Shown here one piece after another: positions 12,672-52,634 of a DNA stretch of 64,000 nucleotides; positions within the stretch are counted from its first letter, which is position 1, and each line of letters begins with the position of its first letter. Source of the DNA: an uncultured bacterium. Lineage in GTDB: Bacteria > Chloroflexota > UBA5177 > JANWHV01. The notes beneath the pieces were generated by a model. That model was not told where the DNA came from. It made no database searches and saw only the letters and a list, made by a program, of their open reading frames with translations. The stretch lies in assembly GCA_963827235.1 (NCBI GenBank), contig CAWHAE010000010.1, positions 896,001 through 960,000 on the forward strand, given 5' to 3'. Both the position numbers and the translations under genes were made by a program.

Positions 12672-13952
12672 TTACTGGAGCAGCTTCAGGACGCCCTGAG
12701 GAGCACTGTTGGCCTGCGCCAACATAGCCGTGGAGGACTGCTGCAGGATCTGGGCCGTGGCCAGAGCCGTGGACTCCTCTGCCATGTTGACGTCGGTGAT
12801 GGCGCTGTACGCCGAGGTCATGTTCTCGGAGCCGATCTGCAGGTTGCTGATTGCCTCCGTGAGACGGTTCTGCACGGCGCCGAGCGCAGCCGACTGCGTC
12901 GAGACCTGTTGGATGGCGGCATCGATCACGCTGATGGCACCGTTCGCCGCGGTCTGGGTCGAGATATCCAGCGCGCCGGTCGTCTCCGCGGCGGTGGTCA
13001 GGTTGCCGCCCGCGTTGTAGACGGCCGCCTGGTTGCCTGTGCCCACGGCGGAGACGCCCAGGGAGTAGGAGTCCATGGCGCTGATGCCGACTTCGAGGCT
13101 CTGGCTGGAGTTGGCGCCAACCTGCAGCGTCACGCCACCGGTCGTGACCGGACCCTGCGTGGCGTTGGCGACCGTGAAGCTCACGGTCCCACCGACCGTC
13201 GGGTTGACGTTGTTGGTGCCGCTATCCAACGTGATGGTAAGCCCGAAGTTGGTGGCCGCAGTCGCATTGGTCAGGGTGTAGGAGGCCGTGCCGTCGGTGC
13301 TGGACGTGGCCGCCGTCGACGCTGCCGTGAGATCGTACCTGGTGCCATTGATGCTGACCGAGCCGGCGTTGGCGCCGTTGGTCAGGCTGTTGATCTCCAC
13401 CGAGTAGGAGCCGTTGGCGAGCGCCCCGGTACTCGAGGCTACAGTCGCCGTGGTCGTCGCGCCGAGACCGCTGGTCGTAATGCTATTGCCGTTGATCGTA
13501 CCGCCGCTATACGTCGTGCTGGTGTCCTGCGCGCCGTCAAGCAGATTCTTGGTGTTGAACTGCGTGGTGTTGGCAATCTGCGTGATTTCCTGCGAGATCT
13601 GGTCTGCCTCGGACTGCAATGCCTGGCGGTCCGAGCTGGTGTTCGTATCGTTGGAAGACTGTACAGCCAGCTGGCGCAGGCGCTGCAACAGGCTCTGCGT
13701 GGTCTGCAGACCGCCGGTCGCGGTCTGGATCATGGAGATGCCATCCTGGGCGTTGGACTGCGCCTGGTCGAGGCCCGTGCTCTGTGACTGGAGCTTGTTG
13801 CTGATCGCATACCCGGCCGCGTCGTCGGCAGCGCTGTTGATACGCTTGCCGCTGGAGAGACGCTGCATGGCCGTGGTGAACATGCTCTGCGCCGTGGTCA
13901 GGTTCCTGAGGGTATCCTGCGCCTCGACGTTGTTGTTGATCTTGAGTCCCAT
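12672..13952 (-). CDS. fliC: Flagellin (copy 2)
   Basis: 426 aa, nearly identical to copy 1, conserved flagellin N- and C-terminal motifs. Confidence 0.98.
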   Translation of the reverse strand: MGLKINNNVEAQDTLRNLTTAQSMFTTAMQRLSSGKRINSAADDAAGYAISNKLQSQSTGLDQAQSNAQDGISMIQTATGGLQTTQSLLQRLRQLAVQSSNDTNTSSDRQALQSEADQISQEITQIANTTQFNTKNLLDGAQDTSTTYSGGTINGNSITTSGLGATTTATVASSTGALANGSYSVEINSLTNGANAGSVSINGTRYDLTAASTAATSSTDGTASYTLTNATAATNFGLTITLDSGTNNVNPTVGGTVSFTVANATQGPVTTGGVTLQVGANSSQSLEVGISAMDSYSLGVSAVGTGNQAAVYNAGGNLTTAAETTGALDISTQTAANGAISVIDAAIQQVSTQSAALGAVQNRLTEAISNLQIGSENMTSAYSAITDVNMAEESTALATAQILQQSSTAMLAQANSAPQGVLKLLQ

Positions 13953-14105: not shown

Positions 14106-14568
14106 GTGGCTACCCGGGAACTAGCCAAATCTTCCTATGCACGCCGACAAATGGGCTATTACTACAGTGACACCTAGCTCAGCGCCTCTGGGCACGTGTC
14201 ACCAAAGGTAGGCGTGGTGTCGGCTCTGTCCAGAGGCAGCCATGAAGCCGAATCCAGAAATGTCGCCATAGTTACTAGCGCGCGTGCCACAACTGTGGTG
14301 CGAGGCTGCCAGTGCCGGCTTCTGATCCGTGCCAACCCGGCGCTACACTGCCTACGGTTGGAGCGCCTGTGAGCCATACAAAGTTTAGCCGCCGTGTTAC
14401 TCGAGATTGCGGCCGGACGTGGCCGCAGGGCACTGTTTGCCGGTTGCTGATTCCACCCGCACGAACACTCGGGCATCGCCGCCGCGCAGTCAGCGCCGGG
14501 GCGACTCACGTGCGATGGCCCTAGCGAACAGGCAAGGCATCTCCGCAAGCTGCAAGAGGAACACGCCA

Positions 14569-16683
14569 TTGTTGAAGCGCGCCGGTCCCACTACACCGTC
14601 GCGGAATGGGCTCTGCCCGTGCGGCAGCGGCCGAAAGTACAAGCACTGCTGCCTTCGCACCCAGAGGTTCGCGAATCCGCCGTCCGAGCCGCATGGGGCG
14701 CCACCGGCGCGACCTTCGGACGCCGGCCAGGCTCGCACCCTGCAGGATGCGCGAGAGGTGGAGGGAAGCGGCGGGCACGATCCGGCGGCACAGGCGGAGG
14801 CGGCAGACCTGCATCGCCTGGGCGTAGCAGCACTGGCCGACGGCCACAATAATCGCGCCGCCGAGCTGATCAGCCGGGCGATCGAGCTCGACGCCGAAGT
14901 GCCTTCATTCTATGACGACCTGGCCGCCACGCTGACTGACACGGATAGCCTCGCGCCTGCCACGGTAAGCCGCCTGCGGCGGGCTTGGCCCCGTGACGCG
15001 CTGGTACAACAGTTGGCCGCCAACGCACTCTTCCAGTGGGGGGACCTTCGTGGCGCCCGGGACGCCTGTCGAGCTGCACTCGCAATCCATCCGGGCGACA
15101 GTTCCGTGCTGCAGACGCTTGCCTTTGCGCTCGGCGAGCTGGGCGAGAACGAAGAAGCCGTGGTCGCCTATCGCAGCGCCCTGGCCGCCGATGCGGGTAA
15201 TGCCACTCTCTACCACAATCTGGGCGACTGTCTCCGGCAGCTCGGCAAGCTCGACGAGGCGCAGGCTGCTCTCGAGCAGGCCGTGTGTCTGGCACCCGAG
15301 AATGCCAAGTCGCAGCTCAACCTGGCACACGTGCAGCAGATGCTCTGCGACTGGCGGGGCATCGAGGAACGGTGGGCCGCGGTTCGGGCCGCGCTGGCCT
15401 GCGGCACGGCGCTGAACCCGTTCTTTCTGCTCAGCGTTCCCACCACCGCGCGAGAACAACTGCTATCCGCGCGAGCCTGGGCAGCGGAGCGGTTCGGCCA
15501 GCCCGGACCCGGTGACCAGATGATCTCGAGCGCGCGTCCGCCTGGACCCCGTGAGAGGCTGCATGTCGGCTACCTCTCATCGGATCTCCGCGATCATGCC
15601 GTCGCGCGCCTGATCGCCGAGGTGTTCGAGCTTCACGACAGATCGGCGTTTGCTATAAGCGCCTACTCGATAGGCCCCGACGATCGCAGCCCGCTTCGCC
15701 GGCGATTGATCGAAGGCGTGGATCACTTCGTCGACCTCTACCACGCGTCACGCGCTGAAGCCGCCAAGCGCTTTGAGGACGATGCTGTCGACATACTGGT
15801 CGATCTCAACGGGCACACGGCGAGGAACCGCGCAGACATCCTCGCCATGCGGCCGGCGCCAATCCAGGTCAGCTACTGGGGCTATCCCGGCACCACCGGC
15901 GCTCCTTTCATCGACTACGCTATCGCCGACCGATTCGTCGTGCCCGAGTGGCAACGGGACAGTTTCAGCGAGCGCCTGGCTTACATGCCTCACTGCTACA
16001 TGCCGAACGACCGCAAGCGACCGATCGCCGCCGGCATCCTCACACGAACGGAGCACGGGCTGCCCGAGAGTGGCTTCGTGTTCTGCGCATTCAATCACGT
16101 GATGAAGCTCACGCCTGAGGTGTTCGCGACATGGATGCGCGTGCTCACTGCTACACCCGGCAGCGTGCTGTGGTTGCTGGAGACGAACCGCTGGCCCGGT
16201 CCGAACCTTCGGAGCGAAGCAGAACGTGCCGGCGTCGACCCGCGGCGGCTTATCTTCGGACCGGCATTGCCATTGCCTGAGCACCTGGCTCGCCATCGCC
16301 TGGCCGACCTGTTTCTGGATACGCTGCCGTACAACGGTCACACCACGACGAGCGATGCGCTATGGACCGGGTTGCCGGTGCTTACCTGCAGCGGAGAGGC
16401 GTTCGCCTCGCGCGTGGCAGGAAGCGCCCTCTACGCGGCGGGACTGCCCGAGCTTGTGACAAGCTCGCTGGCGGACTACGAGGCGCAGGCTGTCGGGCTG
16501 GCGCGCGATCCCACCCACCTTCACGAGCTCCGTGAGCGCCTGATGGATAACCGCGAGACCGCGCCGCTGTTCGACTGCCGGTGCTATACCCGCGACCTCG
16601 AAGCGCTCTATGCACGCATGTGGGATGACTACTGCCGGGCGTCCGGCGCGAGAGGGATTGACCGCACGCCGCTGAGCGCATGA
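14569..16683 (+). CDS. SEC-C + TPR + SPINDLY/OGT-like (GT41) protein glycosyltransferase
   Basis: SEC-C RNGLCPCGSGRKYKHCC; TPRs; GT41 motifs VGYLSSDLRDHAV, DILVDLNGHT, RPAPIQVSYWGYPGTTG, FCAFN..KLTP, DLFLDTLPYNGHTT, FASRVAGS; TTG start after GAGGA (uncertain). Confidence 0.92.
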   Translation: MLKRAGPTTPSRNGLCPCGSGRKYKHCCLRTQRFANPPSEPHGAPPARPSDAGQARTLQDAREVEGSGGHDPAAQAEAADLHRLGVAALADGHNNRAAELISRAIELDAEVPSFYDDLAATLTDTDSLAPATVSRLRRAWPRDALVQQLAANALFQWGDLRGARDACRAALAIHPGDSSVLQTLAFALGELGENEEAVVAYRSALAADAGNATLYHNLGDCLRQLGKLDEAQAALEQAVCLAPENAKSQLNLAHVQQMLCDWRGIEERWAAVRAALACGTALNPFFLLSVPTTAREQLLSARAWAAERFGQPGPGDQMISSARPPGPRERLHVGYLSSDLRDHAVARLIAEVFELHDRSAFAISAYSIGPDDRSPLRRRLIEGVDHFVDLYHASRAEAAKRFEDDAVDILVDLNGHTARNRADILAMRPAPIQVSYWGYPGTTGAPFIDYAIADRFVVPEWQRDSFSERLAYMPHCYMPNDRKRPIAAGILTRTEHGLPESGFVFCAFNHVMKLTPEVFATWMRVLTATPGSVLWLLETNRWPGPNLRSEAERAGVDPRRLIFGPALPLPEHLARHRLADLFLDTLPYNGHTTTSDALWTGLPVLTCSGEAFASRVAGSALYAAGLPELVTSSLADYEAQAVGLARDPTHLHELRERLMDNRETAPLFDCRCYTRDLEALYARMWDDYCRASGARGIDRTPLSA

Positions 16684-21941: not shown

Positions 21942-23615
21942 TCAGGGCTGGCCTGAGGAGCTATACTCTTGCTGCAGCTGCATGACCTTCTGGATGTAGT
22001 TCTGGGTCTCGGAATACGGAGGAACGCCGCCATAGGCGGACACTGCTCCCGGCCCAGCATTGTAGGCGGCAAGCGCCAGTTGTTCGTTTCCGGAGTATTG
22101 GTCCAGCAGGGTGCGCAGGTACTGCGAGCCTCCGGCAAGATTCTGCTGCGGATCGAAGCTGTTCGAGACCCCATAGGTGCTCGCCGTGCCGTCCATCAGC
22201 TGCATCAAGCCCTTGGCTCCGGCCGACGACTCCGCGTTGGGATCTCCGCCCGACTCGGCCTGAACGACGGCGGACAGCAGGCTCGCCGAAACTCCGGACG
22301 TCTGTGCGGCCTGCTCGATCAGCGAATTCAGGGCCCCGCCGGCCCACGATCCCGACGTAGCGTCTGCACCGCCCACGCCCGACGTGGACTGCTGCTGGCC
22401 GGCCGCGGTCGGCGATGAGGCAGCTTGACCCGCCTGCGACGCTGCCGCCGACCCGGCCGCCGAGCCATACTGCACCGGCATGAGAGCGATGCCGCCGTAG
22501 CTCTGCAACATGGGCATGATCGGCATCATGTAGATCGGCGTTGTCGAGCTCATCGTCGTGCCCAACGTGCCGCCGGTCTGCAACGTGAGCGGAGTCTGCG
22601 AGGTCGATGTACTACCGTTCAGGTAGGGCGTTGGGTCGACCCACTTACCGTTGACCTCGACGCCAAAGTGGAGATGCGGACCAGTGCTGTTCCCGGTGCT
22701 TCCGGAAAGACCGATCTCTTGGCCCGCCTGGACTGTGTCACCCACCTTCGCGTCGACCTGGGACAGGTGGCCGTAGAGGCTGACAACGCCGTTGCCGTGG
22801 TCGATCATCACCTCGTTGCCGTAGCCTACGTCGGTCCAGCCTGCCGCTATCACCTTCCCCGAAGCTGCGGCCTTCACCTCTGTGCCCTGCGGCAGCCCGT
22901 AGTCGATGCCGGTGTGGAAGTGAGTGTAGCCGTCATATGACGGCTCGGCCGTAAAGTCGGTCGGGCCGTACCCCTGCGTTACGGAATACTGGCCGCTAAA
23001 CGGCATCGCCAAAGAGCTCGAGCCGGTGGCAGCCTGAGGCGCCGCCGCTTGGCTTGTTGCACCGGTGGCCGTTTGCGTGCCTGCGCCACCGGCCACCGCA
23101 AGCCCCATCGGCACTGCCATGACCGGCACGAGCATGTAGGCGACCGGCTGCATGGCCATTGCAGTCCCCAGATACGGATACTGAGCCTGGCTGATTCCTT
23201 GTGTGTTGCCGGTGGCGCTTTGAGCGGGCACTGTTTGCGAGGTCCCAGCCCCGCCGGTATCGGCCGAGGTGCCGGCTGCATTGCTGCCGGCCGTCGAGCC
23301 GCTCGTGGTGCTCGTGGTGCTCGAGGTCGAGCCGCTCGTGGTGCTCGTGGTGCTCGAGGTCGAGCCGCTCGTGGTGCTCGAGGTCGAGTGAGTCGGAGTC
23401 CCGGAGGCGTTGCCGGACGCGTTCGCCTTCGCGGCAGGCTGGCTGGTAGAATCCGCGGCAACCGAGCGCAGGATGTTCTCGAAGTCGCTGGCCGTCGGAG
23501 CGTTGTACGGGATGACCGTCCCAGTCGGGATGAGGGGCGTAGCGTCGTCCGCCCGACCGGCAGTGTGCGCAGACCGGTACGATCGAGAGACGTTGTCAAC
23601 TGATGAGAGGTGCAT
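21942..23615 (-). CDS. M23 peptidase + lytic transglycosylase (SLT) fusion with Ser/Thr-rich N-terminus
   Basis: M23: HTGIDY, YGHL, GSTGNSTGPHLHF; SLT: VQAESGG, S.AGAKGLMQLM, ALAAYNAG, PPYSETQNY; SD GGGAGGG before ATG 23615. Confidence 0.93.
   Translation of the reverse strand: MHLSSVDNVSRSYRSAHTAGRADDATPLIPTGTVIPYNAPTASDFENILRSVAADSTSQPAAKANASGNASGTPTHSTSSTTSGSTSSTTSTTSGSTSSTTSTTSGSTAGSNAAGTSADTGGAGTSQTVPAQSATGNTQGISQAQYPYLGTAMAMQPVAYMLVPVMAVPMGLAVAGGAGTQTATGATSQAAAPQAATGSSSLAMPFSGQYSVTQGYGPTDFTAEPSYDGYTHFHTGIDYGLPQGTEVKAAASGKVIAAGWTDVGYGNEVMIDHGNGVVSLYGHLSQVDAKVGDTVQAGQEIGLSGSTGNSTGPHLHFGVEVNGKWVDPTPYLNGSTSTSQTPLTLQTGGTLGTTMSSTTPIYMMPIMPMLQSYGGIALMPVQYGSAAGSAAASQAGQAASSPTAAGQQQSTSGVGGADATSGSWAGGALNSLIEQAAQTSGVSASLLSAVVQAESGGDPNAESSAGAKGLMQLMDGTASTYGVSNSFDPQQNLAGGSQYLRTLLDQYSGNEQLALAAYNAGPGAVSAYGGVPPYSETQNYIQKVMQLQQEYSSSGQP
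23293..23388. repeat. In-frame tandem repeat (33 bp x2, a 24 bp variant and a partial unit) encoding STTSTTSGSTS
   Basis: GTCGAGCCGCTCGTGGTGCTCGTGGTGCTCGAG repeated. Confidence 0.9.
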
Positions 23616-24075
23616 CGCTTTCCCTCCCGTGATCTGCGAGGCGTGCATAGCGCATCGTCGTGAGCTCGTCCAGTTCCCGATCCATGGCTTGCCTCTCCAG
23701 CTCGTCGAATTCCTCGTGACGCCGTTCGCGGAGTCGCTCCAGCGCCATTCGCCGCTGTGAGGCCTCGCGCAGTGCGTTCCTTGCACGCTGTACCTGCGCG
23801 TCCCACTGTTGGAGCTGTGCCGTGAGCTGTTTGACCTGCTGGACGGTCCGGTCCACGAAAATCAGCTGATTCATGCGGGACGAGGCGTCGACCGGCCCGC
23901 CGTACCACGCGCTATGCTTTGCCGAGCCGTGAAGCAGGTTCGTCATACGTGACAACTCAGCGGCCATCTCGTTCCGTGCCCGGATCATGCGAAAGAGAGC
24001 CAGCTGCGCAGTCTGCTCAAGTCTCTTCCTGTGCTGAAGCGCGACATCGAGTGAGAACCTGAATGCCCTGCTCAT
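23596..24075 (-). CDS. fliJ: Flagellar export protein FliJ
   Basis: FRFSL..AL..R...E start, coiled coil, LERLRERR....LDE; follows fliI. Confidence 0.9.
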   Translation of the reverse strand: MSRAFRFSLDVALQHRKRLEQTAQLALFRMIRARNEMAAELSRMTNLLHGSAKHSAWYGGPVDASSRMNQLIFVDRTVQQVKQLTAQLQQWDAQVQRARNALREASQRRMALERLRERRHEEFDELERQAMDRELDELTTMRYARLADHGRESDAPLIS

Positions 24076-32464: not shown

Positions 32465-33862
32465 TCAACATCTCGAGATCATGTCGGAGATCGTCTGGTT
32501 CATGATGGAGACCACATGAGCGCAAGCCTCGTAGGCGTTCTGATATGACAGCAGGTTGCTGGCCTCTTCGTTCGTGGACACACCGGCCACGGAGCTCTCC
32601 TGGTCATTGAGCTGGCTGAAGCACCTGCGTGCCCGTGTCCACATTGGCTGTAGCCTGCTGGCCGTCCACGCCAAGCTTGGTAATGATGGCGTTGTACTGC
32701 GATTCTAGCGTCGAGGTCTGCCCGGCTGGGCACGTTCTCGGCGAGATCGGCAATCTCCAGGGCGACGCTGCCGTCACTGGGCGCGTTGGCACTCGCCGAC
32801 GCCGCGACGTTCGTAGGATCGGACACGATCGAGGAGTTCACGGCAATGGAGCTTGCCGTGGTTCCCTGTAAAGAAGTCCAGACCGGTGGCACCGTTGCTG
32901 CCGTATCCCGTCTCGTGAAGGGCGTTGACGGCGCTGGCCACGTTCGCGGCGAGCGAGTTCAGCGCGTCGAGCCGCGACTGGATGGTAACGTCGCGGTCGG
33001 TGATCGCGCCGCCGAGCGTGCCACCCGACACAGTCAACAGGTGTAGTCGAGCCTTCGAAGGTGACGTCGGAGAACTGGGCATTGGTCGTGGACGGCGTAG
33101 TCGCCAGGTTGAACGACGACGTACCCCTGCACCAGCGCACCGCCGCCCGTGAGCGAGATGTTCATGGCGCCACTGGACGACACGCTATACTGCACGCCGA
33201 CTATGTCGGACAGCTGGCTGAGCAGTTTGTCGCGGGAGTCCTCCAGATCGTTCGGGGCCTGACCGAGCGCCTGCACCTCGGTAATCTGCTGGTTCAGGGT
33301 CGCGATCTGGCCGGTGATCCCATTGATCTGGGAGACCAGCGAGCCGACCTGCGTATTCTCATCGCTCTGCATGGTGGTCAGCGACGACGCCAGCGGACTG
33401 GAAGCCGTTAGCAAGCTGCTCGCCGCTGGACACCACCGCCTCGCTCACGGCATCGCTCGACGGATCGTTCGCCAGCGATTGCCAGGAGCTGAAGAAATTG
33501 CTCAGCAGCGAGCCAAATCCGCTACTGGTCGGCTCGTTGAAGAGCTCGGTGACATTTGTCAGGGTCGTGCTCGTGCCCTCACGCTGCGACTGCTGGCTGT
33601 TCTGGTAGACGATCTGCTGCTCCACGAAGTCGTCGTGGGCTCGCGATATCGAGCCGACCGTGGCGCCGGTACCGATCTGCCCGGCGCCGGCGGGCAGGAG
33701 CGAGGCGTCGCTCACCGGGGCCGTGGTCACGATGTTCACAATCTGCCGCGAGTAGCCGTCCGTGGTGGCGTTGGCAATGTTGTGGCCGGTGGTGTCGATG
33801 GCCACCTGCTCGGCCTCCATCGCGCGCAGTACCGTGTTGATACCGAGAGTAAGCCCTGGCAT
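32465..33862 (-). pseudogene. flgK: Hook-associated protein FlgK, split by at least six +1 frameshifts (pseudogene or sequencing error)
   Basis: N-terminal GHNIANA.T.GYSRQ, F.SWQ.LANDP, NDL.D.RD.L...LS, C-terminal GVS.NEE..NLL.YQ.AY.A.A, spread over successive frames. Confidence 0.9.
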
Positions 33863-33864
33863 GG

Positions 33865-34383
33865 CTAAGCTGACCTCCACACTTGGCGATGCGGCCTGCT
33901 GCCCGACATCTCTCGCTCTCCGTGTGGCCCATACATGGGCGTCCCGCCGGCCGGCACACACGTGCGGCGCACCGTGGCCAGAGCGCTGCGCGACAGGACG
34001 CCGCAATGATGCTGCAGCGCCTGCAGGCGCACCAGCGTTTGCAAGAGATCACTGCGAAGTCGCGCGAGCTCGGCTGCCTCGTCGGGCGGAAGCAAAGTGA
34101 GCAGCGCGGTGATGGTCAGTCTACCGTTGGGCGAGCCCTTCGTGTCGCAGCCGGCCAGGGACCGCGTCAGGGCCAGCTCGGCTTGCCGCCGCCGCCGTTC
34201 CGCGGCCTCCATCTTGCTGAAGGCCGCCGTCTGCGCCATCACCGCCGTCTGTACCGCCGCGGGCTTGCCAGCCACGAGAGTGGCTATGAGCTCACCGGAG
34301 CACTCCACGCACCGCGTGTACTCAACCAGCAGATCCCGCATGGCTTGCAAAAGCGGTTCCACGACTCGAGGCGCGATCTTCAT
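33865..34383 (-). CDS. flgN: Flagellar export chaperone FlgN
   Basis: Helical protein between flgM and flgK with C-terminal Y...G motif. Confidence 0.8.
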   Translation of the reverse strand: MKIAPRVVEPLLQAMRDLLVEYTRCVECSGELIATLVAGKPAAVQTAVMAQTAAFSKMEAAERRRRQAELALTRSLAGCDTKGSPNGRLTITALLTLLPPDEAAELARLRSDLLQTLVRLQALQHHCGVLSRSALATVRRTCVPAGGTPMYGPHGEREMSGSRPHRQVWRSA

Positions 34384-34811: not shown

Positions 34812-35579
34812 TTAGCGAGCTGAAATACTCACAACGTTATTGACAAGTGTGTCGACGGTTTGCAGCGCCTTGCTGTTGGCTTGGAATTGCCGCTCCGCTT
34901 GGATGAGTTCGACCATCTGCGCCGCCAAGTCGACGGTGGATGCCAGGCGATAGCCGCTCATCACGCGGACCGCACCGGAGTTCGACGTCTGGGGCCGTCC
35001 GGAGCTCAGGGTCTCCGTATACACTCCTTCGCCCGCGTCGCTGAGGTTCTGCTGGGCCGGAAAAGTGACCGTTGAAATCGTGCCTATCTGTACGGTCTTG
35101 CCGGTGCGGTCGGTGCCCGTCACGTTGCCTTTGCCGTCCACGGTGATGTCGGATACCGTTCCAGTTGTCTGAAGCGGTGGTACCAGGGAAAGTCCATCCG
35201 TGGTCACGATCTTGCCGTCAGGCTGTTGTTCGAGCGAGATCTGCGGTGAATACACCACCTGTCCGCCTGCCTGCCGAAGCTCGAACATGCCCTGACCTTC
35301 GATAGCCAGGTCAAGCGGATTCCCGGTCGCCTGCAGCGAGGTTGTGCCGTCGATCGTCTCGGTGGCCACGCTCAGGGCACCCATGCCGACGTTCGTGGCC
35401 GCGGACGAGGTGTCAAAGACGGAGGCGGACACCTGAGACTGCGACGGCAGGCTGTTGACGATCGGCTCCTGCTCCGCAAAGCCTTGCGAATTGAGGTTGG
35501 CGATGTTGTTGGCGACCACGTTGAGCTGGAACTCGGCGCCCTGCATTCCCGCCTGCGGCACGCCGTATAACCCGTTCAT
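34812..35579 (-). CDS. flgG: Flagellar rod protein, FlgG-like
   Basis: VANNIAN.N..GF, TGNPLDLAIEG.G.F, S.VD...QMV.LI.A.R.FQANSK. Confidence 0.85.
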   Translation of the reverse strand: MNGLYGVPQAGMQGAEFQLNVVANNIANLNSQGFAEQEPIVNSLPSQSQVSASVFDTSSAATNVGMGALSVATETIDGTTSLQATGNPLDLAIEGQGMFELRQAGGQVVYSPQISLEQQPDGKIVTTDGLSLVPPLQTTGTVSDITVDGKGNVTGTDRTGKTVQIGTISTVTFPAQQNLSDAGEGVYTETLSSGRPQTSNSGAVRVMSGYRLASTVDLAAQMVELIQAERQFQANSKALQTVDTLVNNVVSISAR

Positions 35580-36346
35580 GTGCTCACCTTCCCAAGGTCG
35601 CTGACGGCGAGGCCGACGGTTGCATCTTCGATTTGCAGCATCTTCGAGGCTGCTTCGTAAGCTCGCTGCGCCGAGATCATATTGGTAGTTTGCGCCGTCA
35701 TGTCCACGTTCGATCCCTCGAGATAGCCCTGCAGCACGGCGACACCGCTGGTACCCGCCTGCACCTTGGTCCCGGGCCCGACGTAGTAGCCGCCACCGAG
35801 CTCGGAAAGCGGCTGTCCTGTTGGGACCTGGGCCAGTCCCAGCGTGACGCCCGCTTTGCCGTCGACGGAAAGCTGCCCGTTGCGGCTGATCGTCAGATTT
35901 CCAGCAGGCACCTTGATAACCTTGCCGTTTGAGTCGAGAACGCGGTAGCCCTGGGACGTAATGAGATCACCATCGGCTGCGCGCTGGAAGTTCCCGTTTC
36001 GCGTAAGGAGGGTCTGTGTGCCGGACTGAACGGTGAAGAAGGCATTGCCATCGATCATGACGTCGAGCGGAGATCCCGTGTGTTTCGGCGCTCCCATCGA
36101 AAGATCGAGACCGTAGTCCCTGACGGTCGGCGCACTGCCTACGGCGCCCACGGTGTTGACCTCCAGGCTGACTGTATTATCGGATGCGGTGCTCGTGCCG
36201 GCCAGCACGCTGCTGAAGTCCTGCAGTACGCCTTGGTGCGCTTTGTAGCCGGGTGTCTCCATATTTGACAGGTTATCGGCTATGTTCGTCTCGATATTGA
36301 ACTGGGCAAGCATGGCGTTTGCGGCTGTATAGACACCAGTATCCAC
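35576..36346 (-). CDS. flgF: Flagellar rod protein, FlgF/FlhO-like
   Basis: G.YTA, NL.N..TPGYK, TG.PLD..I.G..FF, TRNGNF, QGYLEGSNV; GTG after GGAGGT. Confidence 0.85.
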   Translation of the reverse strand: MDTGVYTAANAMLAQFNIETNIADNLSNMETPGYKAHQGVLQDFSSVLAGTSTASDNTVSLEVNTVGAVGSAPTVRDYGLDLSMGAPKHTGSPLDVMIDGNAFFTVQSGTQTLLTRNGNFQRAADGDLITSQGYRVLDSNGKVIKVPAGNLTISRNGQLSVDGKAGVTLGLAQVPTGQPLSELGGGYYVGPGTKVQAGTSGVAVLQGYLEGSNVDMTAQTTNMISAQRAYEAASKMLQIEDATVGLAVSDLGKVST

Positions 36347-36362: not shown

Positions 36363-37049
36363 TCAGGCTCCGGAACGCTGCTCGTAGGCATGAACCAAGG
36401 GGCCCCCTCCCGTCGAGGGGAGGTTGTGAATGGTTACCGGTGCGTGCACGTGGCCGGTATAGGTCGGATGATGGCCAGGAGTAGCGACCACGCCGGGAAT
36501 CGCCGTCGGTAGAGGCGTGCCGCCGAGGCCATATCCGGGCGAACCCGACGTGGACGTAGCGGCCGCGGCCGGTGTGGCCGGAACGAGGCCTGCGAGGCTG
36601 CGGTCCGACCCCGGCGTCGTCGACGAGTCGCCGGGATGCCAGACGGTCACGAGGATCTCGTTGGCACCCTCCGGAAGGTCCTGCAATAGATAGACGTCCT
36701 GGGTCAGGTCTCCCGCGTAATTGGTGTCAAAGGTGCCCAGGCGCAGCGCCTGCTTGGACTGGGTGTTTGCCACCCACCACATATACTGCTGGCCATTCAA
36801 GAGGTGCGGCAGCAGGTGCACGGTGATGGTAGCCAACTGCTCGGTCGGCCACAGGTGTGCCGAGCCGTACACGTTGGTCGGCCCCCAGTTGGACAGTCCG
36901 TCGATGTACTGCAGCTGAACGGTCACACCCTGTTCCTCCGCGTTGGCGGTCGGCGGCATCGAGCGTCGAACCAACCCGCTTGCGCTCGCCACTGACAGCA
37001 TAACGACGAGAACCAGAGAAACCAGAAATGCCGCGGACCGTTTGTTCAT
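36363..37049 (-). CDS. Secreted protein with RskA-C-like beta domain, Pro/Thr/His linker and C-terminal LPSTG motif
   Basis: Signal peptide MNKRSAAFLVSLVLVVMLSVA; LP.L..GQQY.WW...LGTF...LVT; ends HNLPSTGGGPLVHAYEQRSGA. Confidence 0.75.
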   Translation of the reverse strand: MNKRSAAFLVSLVLVVMLSVASASGLVRRSMPPTANAEEQGVTVQLQYIDGLSNWGPTNVYGSAHLWPTEQLATITVHLLPHLLNGQQYMWWVANTQSKQALRLGTFDTNYAGDLTQDVYLLQDLPEGANEILVTVWHPGDSSTTPGSDRSLAGLVPATPAAAATSTSGSPGYGLGGTPLPTAIPGVVATPGHHPTYTGHVHAPVTIHNLPSTGGGPLVHAYEQRSGA

Positions 37050-37074: not shown

Positions 37075-37557
37075 CTATGCTGAGCCTCTTGCATCGCGCG
37101 GCCAGAGCAGCCGCTGCAGCGCCACTCCAGCGGGGTCCATGGCGCGCTCATGAGCCAGGCTGCGGTCTGTGATGGGAGCCTCGGCTCGCCGTGCGGCCAC
37201 GCGTCGCAGCAGGACCTGGTCCACGTCTTCTTCGACTTCCGGTTCCGGCTCGGGCTCTTGCGGCTGCGGCGGAGTGAACTGCAGCACTGCCGCCCGTGGC
37301 GATCGATCCTGAGCCGCGACCGGGGCGACGGCCGGCTCAGCCTTTTCGACCGAGCGGCGCGGTCGCTCATTCAGCCGATCTGCCAGCGTGGCGCTGAGCT
37401 CCTCAGCTTCCGCCACCCAGTCTCGCATTTGCACCAGCGCCCCGCCGGCACGATTGTTAAGCGATTTCATGCTTACCTGTAGCCGCAGCATTGTGGCCGC
37501 CAGTGCAACCAGAGCGACTGCCTCGACAATACTCACGGCAAGTGCGATTACGATCAT
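37075..37557 (-). CDS. Single-TM coiled-coil protein coupled to fliA (SwrB-like position)
   Basis: N-terminal TM, coiled coil, acidic EPEPEPEVEED; ATGA overlap with the fliA stop. Confidence 0.65.
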   Translation of the reverse strand: MIVIALAVSIVEAVALVALAATMLRLQVSMKSLNNRAGGALVQMRDWVAEAEELSATLADRLNERPRRSVEKAEPAVAPVAAQDRSPRAAVLQFTPPQPQEPEPEPEVEEDVDQVLLRRVAARRAEAPITDRSLAHERAMDPAGVALQRLLWPRDARGSA

Positions 37558-38342
37558 GCTCGTGCCTCTTTCTTCTTCTTGGCGTCTATGCCGCCGTCTA
37601 CGTAGGCGCGAATGCGCATGATGGCACGTGCGTGCAGCTGCCAGACGCGGGACTCGCAGATGTCCAGCACCTTACCGATCTCACGCAGCGTCAGCGAGCG
37701 TTCATAGTAGAGTGACAGCACCAGGCGCTCACGCTCCTCGAGCCGGCGAATAGCGGTGATCACGTGCATCCGGAGCTCACGCTCCTCGATCTGCTGGCTC
37801 GGCGTCGCGGCTTCGTCCGCGATGATATCCATCAGCGTGACGGTAGCCTCCTCGCCGCCCGGAGCGCGAACCGGCTTCTGCAGCGACACGAAGCTGCTCA
37901 CCGCGTCCGCCATCGCGCGGTGCATTTGGGTCACGGTGAGGCCAAGAGCCTCGGCCACCTCTTCCTCCTCCGGTGCCCGTCCCAGGAGCTCCTCGAGGTG
38001 CAAAAGCATGGCCTGGATTTCCTTGGCACGCTTGCGCGAGCTCCGCGGAACCCAATCCGCGGCGCGCAGGGCATCGATGATGCTGCCCTTGATACGGCCC
38101 GTGGCAAACGTCTCAAAGCTTACGCCGAAGCTCACGTCATAGCGGTCGACGGCCTCTATCAGGCCGATCGTGCCGTAGCCGAGCAGGTCATCCTTGCCGA
38201 GAACCTGCGGCAACACGACCATCATCCGCCCAACAATGCGTCGTACCAGCGGAGCATATTCCAGTATCATCTGCTCGCGGTCGACAGTGTTGAGACCCGT
38301 CACCGGGCGTACCGCATTAGCGAGAGGGCTCATTACGGCCAC
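37554..38342 (-). CDS. fliA: FliA/WhiG family sigma factor (sigma28)
   Basis: Y.PLV, DDL..G.IGLI.AVDRYD, FETFA..RI.GSIID.LR..DWVPRS, ERLVLSLYY..LTLREIG.VL...ESRV.QLH. Confidence 0.96.
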   Translation of the reverse strand: MAVMSPLANAVRPVTGLNTVDREQMILEYAPLVRRIVGRMMVVLPQVLGKDDLLGYGTIGLIEAVDRYDVSFGVSFETFATGRIKGSIIDALRAADWVPRSSRKRAKEIQAMLLHLEELLGRAPEEEEVAEALGLTVTQMHRAMADAVSSFVSLQKPVRAPGGEEATVTLMDIIADEAATPSQQIEERELRMHVITAIRRLEERERLVLSLYYERSLTLREIGKVLDICESRVWQLHARAIMRIRAYVDGGIDAKKKKEARA

Positions 38343-38400: not shown

Positions 38401-38676
38401 TCAACGCTCTCCCGACTCATCTGCACTCGCCACGTCCCCAAGGCGTGCAGTAGTACCGGAGCCGCCCACTTTCTCATTGGCGATTCTTGCTAAAGCATCC
38501 TCTACAGTTCTCAGTAAGGCTATAGCCAAAAGAGCTACTACCAAGCTTGCTATCCCTGCCCTCACGAACGCATCCAGCGTCGCGGCGCCGTCGGTGATGC
38601 CGAGCGCCGCCACGGCAAAGAAGACGCCGGTTACCACTACCGAGATCAGCCTTCGCAACCTGAGGACCGGCAGCAT
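38401..38676 (-). CDS. Small two-TM membrane protein
   Basis: Two hydrophobic helices; SD from the flhF end; in operon between flhF and fliA. Confidence 0.65.
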   Translation of the reverse strand: MLPVLRLRRLISVVVTGVFFAVAALGITDGAATLDAFVRAGIASLVVALLAIALLRTVEDALARIANEKVGGSGTTARLGDVASADESGER

Positions 38677-38682
38677 CCGGGG

Positions 38683-39792
38683 CTACCCTCTCTTCCTAGA
38701 AGCCAGCGTGACGCCGAGCGCCGTTCGCACGATGGTGGCAAGGCTGGGCGTCGCCGCGGATGAAGTCAAGTTCTGCCCGCGCACGACCATGCCGACAGGC
38801 TGGTGGGCACAGGCGAGGGCGCCGATCGCGGGCATCACGTTGCGGGTCTCGTCGATACGAGAGAGCACCGCCAGGGGGTTCTTAGCCGCTTGTCGAGCCT
38901 TGGCCAGGAAGTCGACGTTGTCATCGCACTGAGCCGTTGCCGGCACGCAGAGCACTTTCTTGGCGCCGTGCAACGGCCACGTCACCGCGCTGTCGCCCAG
39001 CTCGGCGTCATTGGTCGGCGCCCATGCCGACGCCTGCGCGAGCAACAGCGTTTTCGCGCTGCAGCTGCGCTGCACTTCACGGAGCTCGTCCATGGAATAG
39101 GCGTGCGCGACGCGGCAGTTGAATACTTTGCCGAGCGCATCCATCTCTGCCGCGGCGCCGATGCGGTCGATCTCGGTGTTGACGAGCACGATGTCGCGCT
39201 GGCCTCTCTTTACCCCGGCGAGTGCGATAGTGGCGATCAGCACGCTGCGGCCAGAACCCGCCGGACCGCCGATGACGTACGAGCCGGCGAATGGCTCACT
39301 GGCGGGGATGAGCGGGTCTCCGGCGATGCGCAGCAGGATCTGCTCGACCAGCGCCCAGCGCGCGTCCTGCTCGCTCTCCACTACCTGGTTGCCGTATTCA
39401 GCGACGATCTCGGCGATCAGCTCGGTCACCAGGGCGGCAGGCAGGCCACGGCCCACGAGCTCCCGTGAGAGCGAGCGGAGCGGCACCAGCTGCTTCTCCA
39501 GGTCAGGACCGGCGGCCGCGATCCTTGCTGCCGCCGGGGCGCGGGCGCTGCCCGCGACGGGCGCCTGAGCCTGCTGCTCGGGCATCTGCTTCGGCTGTGG
39601 TGCCGGCTGGTACGCGCGTTGCGCGAACGACCGGCGGCTCGCGACGCCTTCCTGCGGCGGCTGAGGACTGGGCGTCTCCTGCGGCGTCGACTTGAACGAT
39701 CGGAACACTGCCGGCCTGACGCGGGCTACGCCGGGAGCAACAGGCTCGGCAACCTCCTCTAGCTGGCTTCTATCTGTTTGCAAGTTCAACAT
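38683..39792 (-). CDS. flhF: FlhF-like SRP-family protein with degenerate GTPase motifs
   Basis: Follows flhA; GPAGSGRS (G1), DRIGA, SRIDET (G4), GQN; G3 DTAG replaced. Confidence 0.8.
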   Translation of the reverse strand: MLNLQTDRSQLEEVAEPVAPGVARVRPAVFRSFKSTPQETPSPQPPQEGVASRRSFAQRAYQPAPQPKQMPEQQAQAPVAGSARAPAAARIAAAGPDLEKQLVPLRSLSRELVGRGLPAALVTELIAEIVAEYGNQVVESEQDARWALVEQILLRIAGDPLIPASEPFAGSYVIGGPAGSGRSVLIATIALAGVKRGQRDIVLVNTEIDRIGAAAEMDALGKVFNCRVAHAYSMDELREVQRSCSAKTLLLAQASAWAPTNDAELGDSAVTWPLHGAKKVLCVPATAQCDDNVDFLAKARQAAKNPLAVLSRIDETRNVMPAIGALACAHQPVGMVVRGQNLTSSAATPSLATIVRTALGVTLASRKRG

Positions 39793-48418: not shown

Positions 48419-49117
48419 TCAGGTTTGCGGGTAAAGCACGATGATGTCGGCATGGCGATTCTTCGCCCTGCCCGCGGCAGTTTCGTTCGACGCCAACGGA
48501 TGGTATTGGCCAAGTCCCATGGCCTGCAGGCGAGGGGGCTTGATGCCGTTGCTGGCGAAGAACTGCACGATGGAGACCGCACGCATCGCCGAGAGCTCCC
48601 AGTTCGACATCTGGGGCTGGAGCTCGCTATCCGTGTTGCCCTGCACTCGCACGTCGTTGGGCATTGGCTTGAGCGCCGTGGCGATGCCCTTCAACAGAAC
48701 AGCGGACTCGGGCTTGAGCGTCCAGCCGCCAGGGTAGAAGAGCACGTCTCCTGAAATGCTGATCAACACGCCGTCCCTCGCGGTGCCGACCGTCAGCACG
48801 TTCTGCTGCAGGCCGACCATCCTTGCCACCTTCGCCAGCTCGCTCTTCAGCTGCTGGGCCAGGTTCTTTGCGCCCTTAACGGGCCCGCTCTGTTGCTGGT
48901 TACTCCCGGGCGTACCGCCCAGGGTAACGAGCTGAAAGCTGCCGTTGTTGAAGGCCTGACGGAGGGCGCCGGTGAGATCCTCGAACTTCCTGGCGTCGAC
49001 CGTGGACATGGAGTACATGAGTACGAAGAAGATCATGAGCAGGGTGATGAGGTCGGAGTAAGTGAGCACCCAGCGATCGCTGTTCTCCTTGACGACCTTT
49101 GCCTTCTTGGCTCTCAT
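48419..49117 (-). CDS. motB: Flagellar stator MotB
   Basis: RWVLTYSDLITLLMIFFV TM with conserved Asp; OmpA-like G.TD, NWELS..RA, R.KN. Confidence 0.95.
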   Translation of the reverse strand: MRAKKAKVVKENSDRWVLTYSDLITLLMIFFVLMYSMSTVDARKFEDLTGALRQAFNNGSFQLVTLGGTPGSNQQQSGPVKGAKNLAQQLKSELAKVARMVGLQQNVLTVGTARDGVLISISGDVLFYPGGWTLKPESAVLLKGIATALKPMPNDVRVQGNTDSELQPQMSNWELSAMRAVSIVQFFASNGIKPPRLQAMGLGQYHPLASNETAAGRAKNRHADIIVLYPQT

Positions 49118-49120
49118 CGA

Positions 49121-49969
49121 CTACGCCCCTGCCTTGGAAGGAGCCCCGGCCGCCCCGGCTGCCGCGGGCGCAGCCTGCGGAGCCGCCGCTTCCTTCTTGC
49201 CCTTCTTCCCGCTCACCGGCGCGAGGTACCCGGCCAGCTTGTCTTCGACGATTCGCGGGTTATCGCCGTTCTGGATGGCCTCAACGCCGTCAATGATCAG
49301 GGCATCCATCTCTGCCTCGGTGGCCGACCGCCGCTTCAGCTTCGTGGCCACGGGTAGCCAAAGGAGGTTGGCCGAGCCGACGCCGTAGAGCGTCGCCGTA
49401 AAGGCCACCGCGATGGAGCCGGCAAGCTCGGCTGCGTTGCTAATGTGAGCGAGAATGCGAATCAGTCCAAGCACGGTTCCCAGGATGCCCAGCGTCGGTG
49501 CGTAGCCACCGAGCGCCTCGAAGAGGGCGATTCCCACCTCATGACGTGCCTCGCGCGCCGACACTTCAATCTCGAGCACCGACTTGACGACCTCGGGGTC
49601 CGTGCCGTCGACCACGAGACCAATCCCTTTCTTGAGCAGCTGATGGTCGATGCCGGCAACCTCCTGCTCGAGAGCCAAGAGCCCTTCCTTGCGCGCCCGG
49701 CCGGCCAGCTGTACGAACTGCTGCACCAGCGGTCTAGCATCGGTGGCAGGCTCCTTGAACGCGAAACCGATGAGCTTCGGCATTCGCTTCACCACGGAGA
49801 GGGGAAACGACACGAATGCGACGCCGAGCGTGCCTCCGAACACGACCATGCCGGCCGAGATATTGACATACGCGAAAAGGCTGCCGCCATCGATGAGGAT
49901 GGAACCGCATATACCGCCGAGCGCCAGAACAAACCCGATTAGGGTTGCCTTGTCGAGCTTGCGTTTCAT
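49121..49969 (-). CDS. motA: Flagellar stator MotA
   Basis: V.GGT, ARKEGLLALE, VDG, GGYAPTLGILGTVLGLI, AF.ATLYG. Confidence 0.96.
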   Translation of the reverse strand: MKRKLDKATLIGFVLALGGICGSILIDGGSLFAYVNISAGMVVFGGTLGVAFVSFPLSVVKRMPKLIGFAFKEPATDARPLVQQFVQLAGRARKEGLLALEQEVAGIDHQLLKKGIGLVVDGTDPEVVKSVLEIEVSAREARHEVGIALFEALGGYAPTLGILGTVLGLIRILAHISNAAELAGSIAVAFTATLYGVGSANLLWLPVATKLKRRSATEAEMDALIIDGVEAIQNGDNPRIVEDKLAGYLAPVSGKKGKKEAAAPQAAPAAAGAAGAPSKAGA

Positions 49970-50166
49970 ACCGCTTCACCGATCGGCGTGCAAGACTGCT
50001 GGCGGAAGCTGAGCAACTGTTGCATGATGCTCTCTGCCGACTCCCGGACTACCAGATGGTGGCCGTTGGTCAGCGTGATCACCGTGTCCGGTGTCTGCTC
50101 CATGATCTCGATCAGGTTGGCATTCAGGACGAAGCGAGTTCCATCAAATCGGGTTAGCCAGAGCAT
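49966..50166 (-). CDS. flbD: Flagellar FlbD family protein
   Basis: LTR.DG...LN..LIE.....PDTVITLTNG....V.ES; SD AAGGAG. Confidence 0.92.
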   Translation of the reverse strand: MLWLTRFDGTRFVLNANLIEIMEQTPDTVITLTNGHHLVVRESAESIMQQLLSFRQQSCTPIGEAV

Positions 50167-50301
50167 CGGACCGCACTCCTTCATGAACCGCTGACAGTGT
50201 AGTTGCGTGGCGCGCATCGCCCCAAGCAATTGCGCAGGACGCCTACGAGCGCCGTGCACCGATGGCGGCTCTGAATCAGCACCGGCCGTGATGTCGTAGC
50301 G

Positions 50302-51200
50302 TCAAGTCTGTTGCTTGACATGCTCGTCGATTGCCACGAGGTTGCTAATCACGACAACACGCTGGGAATCGATGCCCACCGGGTAACAGCTGATGAGCGT
50401 GGCGATCGGCTCGTCCGTGTGGTCGAGCACCCTCACGTCCGTCGGGGCAACCAGGTCGCGAGCCGTCACTACATAGGTGAAGCGAGTCGTGTCGCGGGAG
50501 AACTCCACGACGTCGCCGACCTGCAGTCTGGCGAGATTGCGGAAGATACAGTCCTGGATGTCGTCATGTCCGTAGACGACATAGTTGTCCCAGGTGCCGA
50601 GCCTGGCCGTATAGCTCAGGTGCGTCAGGGCGTAGCCGGGCGCGATGATCATGTTTCCCTGACTGTCGACGCCACGGTCGTAAACCGGCGCCCGAATCCC
50701 GAGCCGTGGTATAGACACCGTGACACCGCCGGGGCCGGCCGGCGCTACACTTGGATGCGCGTCGCAGTGCATCCAAGGAAAGCTCTGAGGAGGCTGTGCG
50801 GGCGCAGACCGGGCAACGTCTGCGGCCAGGCAGGCTCGGGGCCGTGGCTACGCGCGGCTTCGCGGCAACAATGCTAGCGGCCTGGGTTGGCCGAGAAACC
50901 GGGCTGTCGCAGGTTGCCCCATGAGCAGCGGGTGCGCGCGCCGTGAGACGGGGGCTGGTGCGGAAGATCGCGAGGACGCCGTTCCAGCGCCGGGACCGAG
51001 ACTTACGCCTCCAATCCACACGCCCAGACAATCATCATGCCGAAAGCTACCGCAGCAAAAACCCTGCGCACCTGGTATGCTCCTTGCGACGACGCGCCAC
51101 GATATGGCTCGACCGGAGCCTGCCGATCGCAGGATAGCCACGCAGAAGCGGACGCCGATAAGCCCGGCCGAAGGCTGAGCCTCGTCGCACTCACTGGCAT
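50302..51200 (-). pseudogene. Sortase; catalytic domain intact (50302-50772) but separated from its N-terminal TM anchor by an in-frame TAG (50848-50850) and a frameshift near 51027
   Basis: IPRLGI, VVYGHD (His), F..L..L..GD, TLISCYP (Cys), QRVVV (Arg); upstream frames rejoin to give VFAAVAFGMMIVLGVWIGG plus a Pro/Ala linker. Confidence 0.75.
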
Positions 51201-51572: not shown

Positions 51573-52634
51573 ATGGAAACACGGTTCAGAGCCAAAGAAC
51601 CCAGCCCGCATCTCTCTCGCCGGCCACCCGTCGATCCGGCAAAGCGGCAGCGTGGATTCAGCCCCCGCATTCCGAGCCCGCTGCAGGTTGCCTGGGGATC
51701 GCTGGGTGCGGCTGTGCTTCTGGTGATCGTGCTTGGCGTGAACATGATCGTCTCTCAGGGATCGTCCACCTCGACCATCCCGATCATGCGCACTCCGACG
51801 CCACTCGCCGTTCAACGCGTGGCCGTTCCGACCACCGTGGCGGCATCGGGCCTGACCGCGCATGCTTGCATTCGCTACAACCCGCTGCACGGCAACCAGC
51901 ATCACGTCGTGTTCATCGATCCCGGTCACGGCGGCGTCGACACGGGAACGTCGGGCCCCACGACGACCGGCAAGAAGCTGTATGAAAAGAACGTCACGCT
52001 CGCCGTTGCTCTCGCCACGCTGCCCATTTTGCGCGACCAGGGCTACACTGTCGTGCTCTCCAGGAATGCCGATACGCTGGTCAGCCGTACGACCGCTGCC
52101 GACTTTGCCGGCACCACGCTTACGGCAAGCGCCGAGCGCAAGGACGCCCAGGCACGCGTGGCGTGCGCGAACAGCGTGCGGGCTGAAGCGCTGATCATCA
52201 TTCACCTCAACGCATATGCCGATCCCACCACCAACGGGGCCGAGACGGTATACGACGGCTCGCGCTCGTTCCACGCGGCGAGCGAGCGTCTTGCCGATCT
52301 GATCCAGCGCGACGTAGTGTCCCAGTTCAGGAGCGCGGGCTGGCCGGTGCCGGATAACGGCGTCACCGACGATAGAGCGGCAGCCAGCCAGGCACCGACC
52401 GCCGGAGCGGGCGCCGAAGAGCACCTCCTTGAGCTCGGGCCATCCGGACCTAACGGGCTGCAGCAGCCGAGCACGATGCCCGGGGCGCTCGCCGAGCCGC
52501 TGTTCATCACGCATCCCGCTGAGGCCGACGTGGCCATCGATCCGAAGGGCGTGCACGCCATGGCAGCCGGATTAGCCGAGGCCGTAGGCGAGTTCTTCGG
52601 CTCCAAGGTGCCGGCTGGAACCGCCACGCCCTGA
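51573..52634 (+). CDS. N-acetylmuramoyl-L-alanine amidase (Amidase_3), membrane-anchored
   Basis: TM, then IDPGHGG.D.G, EK...L, IHLNA, E..FI motifs. Confidence 0.92.
   Translation: METRFRAKEPSPHLSRRPPVDPAKRQRGFSPRIPSPLQVAWGSLGAAVLLVIVLGVNMIVSQGSSTSTIPIMRTPTPLAVQRVAVPTTVAASGLTAHACIRYNPLHGNQHHVVFIDPGHGGVDTGTSGPTTTGKKLYEKNVTLAVALATLPILRDQGYTVVLSRNADTLVSRTTAADFAGTTLTASAERKDAQARVACANSVRAEALIIIHLNAYADPTTNGAETVYDGSRSFHAASERLADLIQRDVVSQFRSAGWPVPDNGVTDDRAAASQAPTAGAGAEEHLLELGPSGPNGLQQPSTMPGALAEPLFITHPAEADVAIDPKGVHAMAAGLAEAVGEFFGSKVPAGTATP

Follow-up and report, generated by a model that had tools for sequence, protein, structure and literature searches.

An LPxTG protein encoded between fliA and the rod genes of Chloroflexota, and its pairing with sortases of the flagellar cluster

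Gene X, which occupies positions 36363..37049 on the minus strand of the 64,000-nucleotide stretch of Chloroflexota DNA analysed here (the window), encodes a 228-aa exported protein with a SOD-like/RskA_C-like β domain and a C-terminal LPSTG motif. A flagellum-linked pairing of this LPxTG protein with a sortase is well supported by comparative genomics, since its loci are flagellar, its LPxTG motif is conserved, full sorting signals are borne by most orthologues, and 28 of the 35 X-bearing genomes encode a sortase inside the flagellar cluster. The X protein would thereby be an accessory to the rod or basal body, anchored in the wall, in a monoderm-type flagellum, a reading that is drawn from sequence comparison and to which a probability of about 0.6 is assigned. 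For the question of how a monoderm flagellum, without L and P rings, supports its rod across a thick wall, X and its likely sortase present a concrete candidate, and one that would extend sortase biology to motility.

LPXTG proteins are characterized by a cell-wall sorting signal and are served by dedicated sortases, as in operon-encoded sortase-substrate pairs. X shares with these proteins a signal peptide and a C-terminal LPxTG, to which most of its orthologues add the transmembrane (TM) helix and basic tail, and it likewise often has a sortase in the same gene cluster. It departs from them in that its gene lies inside a flagellar rod operon, and in that the clade to which the window protein belongs is without helix and basic tail and yet conserves an extended LPxTGGGP motif.

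Architecture and fold of the X protein

The preliminary description of this DNA, made from its letters, had presented X as a signal-peptide protein with a compact β domain, a linker and an LPSTG motif, encoded between the fliA-coupled genes and flgF-flgG, and on this point direct reading of the open reading frame, an AlphaFold2 model and Pfam agree. The signal peptide, assigned by direct reading, comprises approximately residues 1-24 (36978..37049, minus strand) and coincides with a helix of residues 3-29 in the model. Possible cleavage sites, also by reading and not by a predictor, are ASA|S or, further on, ANA|EEQ, and an A-x-A followed by EEQ/NGT is kept in the homologue alignments, including the family alignment of 36 sequences. 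The AlphaFold2 model, built on a 36-sequence alignment with a mean pLDDT of 78, displays eight strands that form one domain, a β-sandwich of residues 41-157 (36579..36929, minus strand) with pLDDT >93 (block values of 93-98). This domain is followed by a Pro/Thr/Gly/His-rich linker (residues 158-209; 36423..36578, minus strand) that is modelled at pLDDT <50, with long stretches from residue 163 on below that value, and is hypervariable in the alignment of close homologues. The LPSTG motif itself (residues 210-214; 36408..36422, minus strand), which in its extended form LPxTGGGP reaches 36399, precedes a polar tail of 14 residues (36366..36407, minus strand) and the stop codon at 36363-36365. 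The tail, GGPLVHAYEQRSGA, has a single Arg, a single His and no hydrophobic stretch. The window protein thus bears two features of a sortase substrate, namely an N-terminal signal peptide (by reading) and an LPXTG near the C-terminus (residues 210-214 of 228), and lacks two features of a complete sorting signal, namely a membrane-spanning stretch after the motif and a positively charged C-terminal tail. The preliminary description had noted this non-canonical tail of 14 residues with neither TM helix nor basic cluster, and the peculiarity is real, although it is the derived state of one clade and not a trait of the family.

A structural search against 48,161 representative chains places the β domain among the Cu,Zn-SOD-type Greek-key folds, its top 15 matches all being SOD or CCS chains with Z-scores of 11.8 to 8.2, followed by the next match at Z 7.2. 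The best of these (6flh_A) superimposes over 104 residues with an rmsd of 2.4 Å (Z 11.8). A Foldseek search of the PDB gave no match at E ≤ 0.001, its best entries being SODs at approximately 1e-2, and a sequence search of the PDB with the X family profile gave none. While the Greek-key β-barrel is common to X, Cu,Zn SOD and domain 2 of CCS, X is only 8-16% identical to these proteins, and their conserved metal-binding histidines are missing from it. The 36-sequence alignment contains no invariant or nearly invariant histidine, and the domain is thus read as a SOD-like scaffold without the metal site.

At the level of sequence families, the Pfam scan of X yields RskA_C (PF10099) alone, as a sub-threshold match over residues 12-146 (E 4.7e-5; 24.1 bits, where the cut-off is 29.4), and hence no FlgI (PF02119), and the NCBIfam search of X is without a match. 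One orthologue, found in another family of the phylum (locus L009), passes the RskA_C cut-off with 45.3 bits, and this same protein bears a textbook sorting signal composed of LPRTG, a helix and the basic sequence KRLRARG. RskA is referred to as the anti-sigma-K factor (PMC7509140). The β domain of X accordingly resembles the RskA_C profile, but X differs from RskA-type anti-sigma factors in being without their cytoplasmic N-terminal anti-sigma domain, and the window protein remains under the cut-off. The generic RskA_C proteins of the phylum differ from X in turn, as they match only positions ~60-170 of the X profile, outside of which lies YLxGVSNWGPT, the most conserved stretch of X. This stretch, with which the β domain opens, is found in X alone and may constitute a functional surface of the protein.

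Flagellar loci and distribution of X

The minus-strand cluster that surrounds X comprises, by Pfam, flhB, flhA, an FlhF-like gene, fliA, a 160-aa ORF, X, two FlgF/G-type genes, flgM, flgN, flgK, flgL and fliW, and farther along fliF-G-H-I-J, fliK, flgD, flgE, two flagellin genes and fliD. The fliA gene (37554..38342, minus strand), of the sigma-28 type, is the conserved upstream neighbour of X. Between the two in the window lies the 160-aa ORF (37075..37557, minus strand), whose product has an N-terminal TM helix and for which neither Pfam nor NCBIfam finds a family. Downstream, the flgF-type rod gene (35576..36346, minus strand; GTG start by alignment) begins 16 nt after the X stop and is followed by the flgG-type rod gene (34812..35579, minus strand), flgM and flgN. 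At least 11 loci have the stop codon of X abutting or overlapping the start of flgF. The codons of LPSTGGG were considered as a possible Shine-Dalgarno site for flgF and rejected, for the flgF start at 36346 lies downstream of the X stop and position x of the motif varies at the protein level.

A word-indexed search of 5.8 billion proteins recovered ten homologues besides the window protein, and among 1.84 billion representative proteins 139 matched the X profile at E ≤ 1e-30. In a scan of one genome per prokaryote species, an alignment of close homologues found no relative, and an alignment of intermediate diversity found 16 loci, whose record titles all mention Chloroflexota, Chloroflexi, Chloroflexia or Dehalococcoidia. 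Among 401 genomes of the phylum, 72 have a match to the X profile, and the scores are bimodal: 35 genomes have a strong match, defined as E ≤ 1e-20 over the full length, and in the remainder the match is of the generic RskA_C kind, limited to profile positions ~60-170.

The setting of these genes is predominantly flagellar. When the 30 best loci were probed by tblastn with the FliA, FlgF and FlgG proteins of the window, the order fliA-X-flgF was found in 28; of the other two, one starts at a contig end and one is without a flagellar neighbour within 18 kb. The X homologue of this last locus (L059 of genome G242, ~9196-9558, minus strand) has LPSTA in place of LPxTG, and its genome, 90% complete, has no FlhA match. 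FlhA exceeds the Pfam cut-off in 50 of the 401 genomes, among which are 32 of the 35 that bear X. In two of the three X-bearing genomes without FlhA, both of them fragmented assemblies, fliA and flgF lie on either side of X, which brings those with a flagellar link to 34 of 35. The assignment of X to flagellar loci, proposed at the outset from the window alone, is in this way upheld by its homologues.

The converse does not hold, as 18 of the 50 FlhA-positive genomes have no strong X match. These 18 include G055 and G226, which are flagged as unpublished; G018, G175, G271 and G343 additionally enter the sortase tally, and nothing else in the analysis depends on these genomes. In four X-negative flagellated genomes from two families fliA directly abuts flgF, from which it follows that X is dispensable for a Chloroflexota flagellum; in three others the gap is filled by different genes. 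X thus appears to be tied to flagella, yet it is not universal among them. As a separate observation, X-negative families carry other genes without a family at the fliA-side site (L052, 7711-8487; L058, 5046-5789; L054, 9338-9778), two of which encode an N-terminal TM helix along with a C-terminal segment that is conserved.

The genome of the window (95.9% complete, with 9% contamination) was also searched throughout for FlgI, FlgH, the rod-binding domain of FlgJ and the chaperone domain of FlgA, and none was found. The absence of flgA, flgH, flgI and flgJ, previously remarked for the window, therefore extends to the whole genome, with one exception of substance: a 614-aa ORF with Peptidase_M23 and SLT transglycosylase domains (21942-23786, minus strand) sits inside the cluster between fliJ and fliK, so that a counterpart to the wall-cutting half of FlgJ does exist. 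Genes resembling this ORF are found by tblastn after fliI in many other Chloroflexota flagellar loci, and it is likely to be a flagellum-specific wall hydrolase that stands in for FlgJ.

The LPxTG motif and its sortases

Conservation of the motif was assessed in three sets. In the 11 close sequences (the ten homologues and the window protein) no substitution affects the L, P, T, G and G of the motif, amid a linker that is otherwise hypervariable, and of the 30 orthologous loci 29 have LPxTG and the remaining one LPSTA. Among the best 150 representatives of X, 130 have an LPxTG after residue 90, and the 20 without it are mostly fragments or variants such as MPETG and LPVSG. Invariance of LPxTG(G) beside a freely varying linker indicates that the motif is present beyond chance. 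In most orthologues the motif is part of a full signal: in 25 of the 30 loci a hydrophobic helix, with a basic tail behind it, begins 0-45 residues beyond LPxTG.

The window protein belongs to the exceptions. A quick maximum-likelihood tree of the region before the motif was computed from 161 of 185 sequences, after removal of 20 that have no motif, one that stops at it and three of fewer than 170 aa. Here the tail-less proteins group in a single clade of 25 rows (SH-aLRT 99), within which identity falls to ~42%, and this clade is sister (SH-aLRT 95) to one with LPDTG, a spacer of ~40 residues and a helix. Six other rows of the tree are labelled tail-less, although three of these have a visible helix that was missed by the filter. 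Since the rows were chosen for the presence of the motif, the tree speaks for a single loss of the helix and not for the rate at which the motif is retained; separate evidence for retention comes from the homologue set, which was not selected in this way and in which it is complete (11 of 11). Within the tail-less clade the motif mostly reads LPxTGGGP and is followed by a short polar or basic tail, again in the midst of a hypervariable linker, and some other tail-less members have tails rich in Arg, Lys and His. The clade of the window protein has thus lost the membrane helix but keeps LPxTGGGP under selection, which raises the question of whether a substrate can be sorted without a helix to retain it in the membrane.

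Sortase domains are found in 283 of the 401 genomes of the phylum, and their mere presence therefore says little, whereas their location says more. Location was established by probing the flanks of sortase genes in the X-bearing genomes with the flagellar proteins of the window (tblastn), the position being taken from Pfam coordinates instead for seven of these loci. Of the 28 genomes in which a sortase lies inside the flagellar cluster, nine have it adjoining flbD-motA as in the window, 16 beside fliD or just before flgC-fliF, and three after flgD-flgE; two X-bearing genomes also have a second sortase copy after flgD-flgE. Three X-bearing genomes have sortases only outside their flagellar clusters, and in two same-genus genomes that lack a sortase match the contig ends cut motA exactly at the site where the sortase would be expected. 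The location count excludes one genome with its sortase gene at a contig edge and one further genome. Twelve cluster sortases score only 21-80 bits against the NCBIfam models of classes C, D, E, F and GN, which have cut-offs of 140-166, and so differ from the curated classes in passing only the generic TIGR01076. Many cluster sortases (L063, L064, L067, L068, L071, L074, L075, L077 and L078) have a Cys immediately after the N-terminal hydrophobic stretch in a lipobox-like arrangement, and may be lipoproteins rather than TM-anchored enzymes.

Sortases at flagellar clusters are not exclusive to genomes with X. Among five X-negative flagellated genomes, two have a sortase in the flagellar cluster, one has a sortase beside cheW only, and two have none there. 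The partners encoded beside some cluster sortases, namely a β-helix protein of ~900 aa in two genomes and a 381-aa β-propeller protein in one X-negative genome, look like ordinary surface proteins. A sortase in the cluster is consequently not specific to X, and sortase-substrate cassettes settle at the edges of flagellar clusters also where X is absent. It is with these LPxTG proteins, which differ from X, that second sortases downstream of flgE are paired (L127, 9524-12250, minus strand; L131, 5885-8731, plus strand; L138, 6260-7405, minus strand).

The sortase gene of the window (50302..51065, minus strand) lies directly upstream of flbD (49966..50259, minus strand; domain at residues 32-88 of the ORF), motA (49121-49969, minus strand) and motB (48419-49117, minus strand). 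Its placement on the same strand upstream of flbD-motA-motB is as first described, but the gene is broken by a frameshift and a stop. Homologous sortases of 76-80% identity have 270-273 aa and comprise a TM anchor at the N-terminus as well as a linker of ~100 residues. The window gene aligns to residues 15-270 of these in one frame that is interrupted by an in-frame stop in the linker (~50848-50850), and a frameshift in the TM-coding part places the first half of the anchor (~51012-51065) in another frame. The catalytic domain remains as an ORF (50302-50772) in which the H, C and R motifs are present. A metagenome scan identified two short contigs of relatives with the order sortase-flbD-motA, one of which encodes a full-length sortase in one frame.

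This is the only sortase-domain gene of the genome, and a six-frame scan of the same genome found no ORF in which LPxTG is combined with a convincing helix and a basic tail, and gave two LPxSG candidates. A second lesion affects flgK (32465-34006, minus strand), which is split into at least four ORF pieces (33359-34006, 33037-33444, 32777-33184 and 32468-32704) that match positions 2-56, 46-146 and 179-233 of the FlgK_D1 profile and the C-terminal rod motif in different frames, while the long neighbours flhA, fliK and fliD are intact. The sequencing runs comprise just three DNA runs with 0.07-0.08 of the sampled words, and no RNA run is listed. The clustered lesions of sortase and flgK represent either pseudogenes or local assembly faults, so that the module may be inactive or decaying in this genome, or the assembly may be faulty at both places.

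The Amidase_3 gene (51573-52634), divergent from the sortase at the edge of the cluster, had been taken as a further component. The arrangement is present in the window but is not conserved, as tblastn found no amidase match at 23 other sortase loci, and the enzyme is ruled out as part of the module. What endures of the proposed flagellum-sortase module is the pairing of X with a cluster sortase across genomes, less the amidase and with the enzyme of this particular genome disrupted.

Proposed role of X and its alternatives

The comparative evidence is consistent with the following scheme. X is a predicted Sec-exported member of the flagellar gene set in many Chloroflexota, presumably transcribed with fliA, flgF and flgG and often translationally coupled to flgF. 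In most lineages the cluster sortase would be expected to cleave LPxT|G and to join the Thr to peptidoglycan, and this attachment would fix the β domain where the rod crosses the wall. The likeliest role is that of a collar, bushing or assembly scaffold in a flagellum without FlgH, FlgI and FlgA. The bushing or stator scaffold named in the preliminary description is, as a specific role, a conjecture. A collar or bushing is attractive because X is encoded in the rod operon and coupled to flgF, because the tether from domain to anchor is short in most orthologues, and because FlgH, FlgI and FlgA are lacking, and the M23 and SLT hydrolase encoded in the cluster suggests an alternative role for X as a scaffold for wall remodelling at the rod. 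In the clade of the window protein, recognition by the sortase probably persists despite loss of the helix, given that LPxTGGGP is kept.

A more specific form of this proposal would have X covalently fixed to peptidoglycan by a flagellum-dedicated sortase, arranged around the distal rod as a monoderm counterpart of the P-ring, and in the clade of the window protein recognized through a new type of sorting signal that is free of a helix; taken as a whole, this version is possible but doubtful. With FlgI, the P-ring protein and periplasmic bushing of diderm flagella, X has in common its linkage to rod genes and its proposed place at the distal rod and peptidoglycan. The two are unrelated in sequence and fold, and the anchoring of X would be covalent through a sortase and not by ring assembly. 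X also differs from the constituents of another widespread periplasmic ring covered in a 2026 review, the E-ring of FlgY, FlbB and MotE, which is defined by the MgtE_N domain, since Pfam finds no such domain in X. Full-text literature searches returned no paper in which a flagellar operon is linked with a sortase or an LPXTG protein. A study of flagellar genes in Tepidiforma, also of the Chloroflexota, reports this genus as motile and gives FlgH and FlgI as absent (PMC10284905), and neither 'sortase' nor 'LPXTG' occurs in its main text.

The strongest challenge to wall anchoring comes from the clade of the window protein itself, where the sorting pathway may be unused, with X secreted or loosely associated with the wall, LPxTGGGP kept for some other purpose such as contact with a partner, and the locus decaying in this genome. 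The lack of TM helix and basic tail after the motif throughout the 25 rows of the clade, the disruption of the sole sortase gene, the fragmentation of flgK into at least four pieces, and the absence of both FlhA and X from two of the genus's four other genomes (83-87% complete) are all as this reading would have it. Nonetheless, close relatives with a tail-less X have full-length, TM-anchored sortases in the same sortase-flbD-motA order, the residues conserved are exactly those of the pentapeptide that sortases recognize, the sister clade retains LPDTG together with a TM helix, and the lesions may be assembly errors, for which reasons disuse of the pathway is considered rather unlikely. X might instead be an ordinary sortase-anchored surface protein that has no flagellar role and has merely become fixed in a flagellar operon, in the manner of the β-helix and β-propeller LPxTG proteins that also lie beside sortases at cluster edges, and X is lacking in 18 of the 50 FlhA-positive genomes. 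Such a passenger is hard to reconcile with the order fliA-X-flgF in 28 of 30 loci from many families, the stop/start overlap with flgF, and the near confinement of X to genomes in which flagellar genes occur (32 of 35, rising to 34 of 35 when the two with flagellar flanks are included); X is, moreover, a small single-copy domain and not a variable adhesin, and the surface-protein reading is accordingly held to be improbable.

A third possibility follows from the only sequence family that X resembles, the RskA C-terminal domain, and from the location of its gene directly or nearly directly after fliA: X could descend from an RskA-type anti-sigma factor and, in place of a structural role, serve outside the cytoplasm as a sensor or regulator that feeds back on expression controlled by FliA and FlgM. 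X begins with a signal peptide, however, and hence has no cytoplasmic anti-sigma domain, FlgM is itself encoded nearby, and it is not evident how a protein fixed in the wall would reach a cytoplasmic sigma factor, all of which makes regulation by X highly improbable. The reading of X as an accessory that is anchored in the wall and serves the rod or basal body is preferred here.

Two further features of the cluster stand apart from X. The FlhF-like gene (38683-39792, minus strand) has a weak match to the SRP54 GTPase domain (E 0.0019), compared to 1.8e-41 for its counterpart in the locus of another family (L009), and is separated from fliA by a 91-aa hydrophobic ORF (38401-38676, minus strand). 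Elsewhere, a glycosyltransferase with TPR and GT41 (O-GlcNAc-transferase-like) domains (14407-16683, plus strand) adjoins the two flagellin genes (10456-11736 and 12672-13952, minus strand), and this enzyme is a candidate for flagellin glycosylation.
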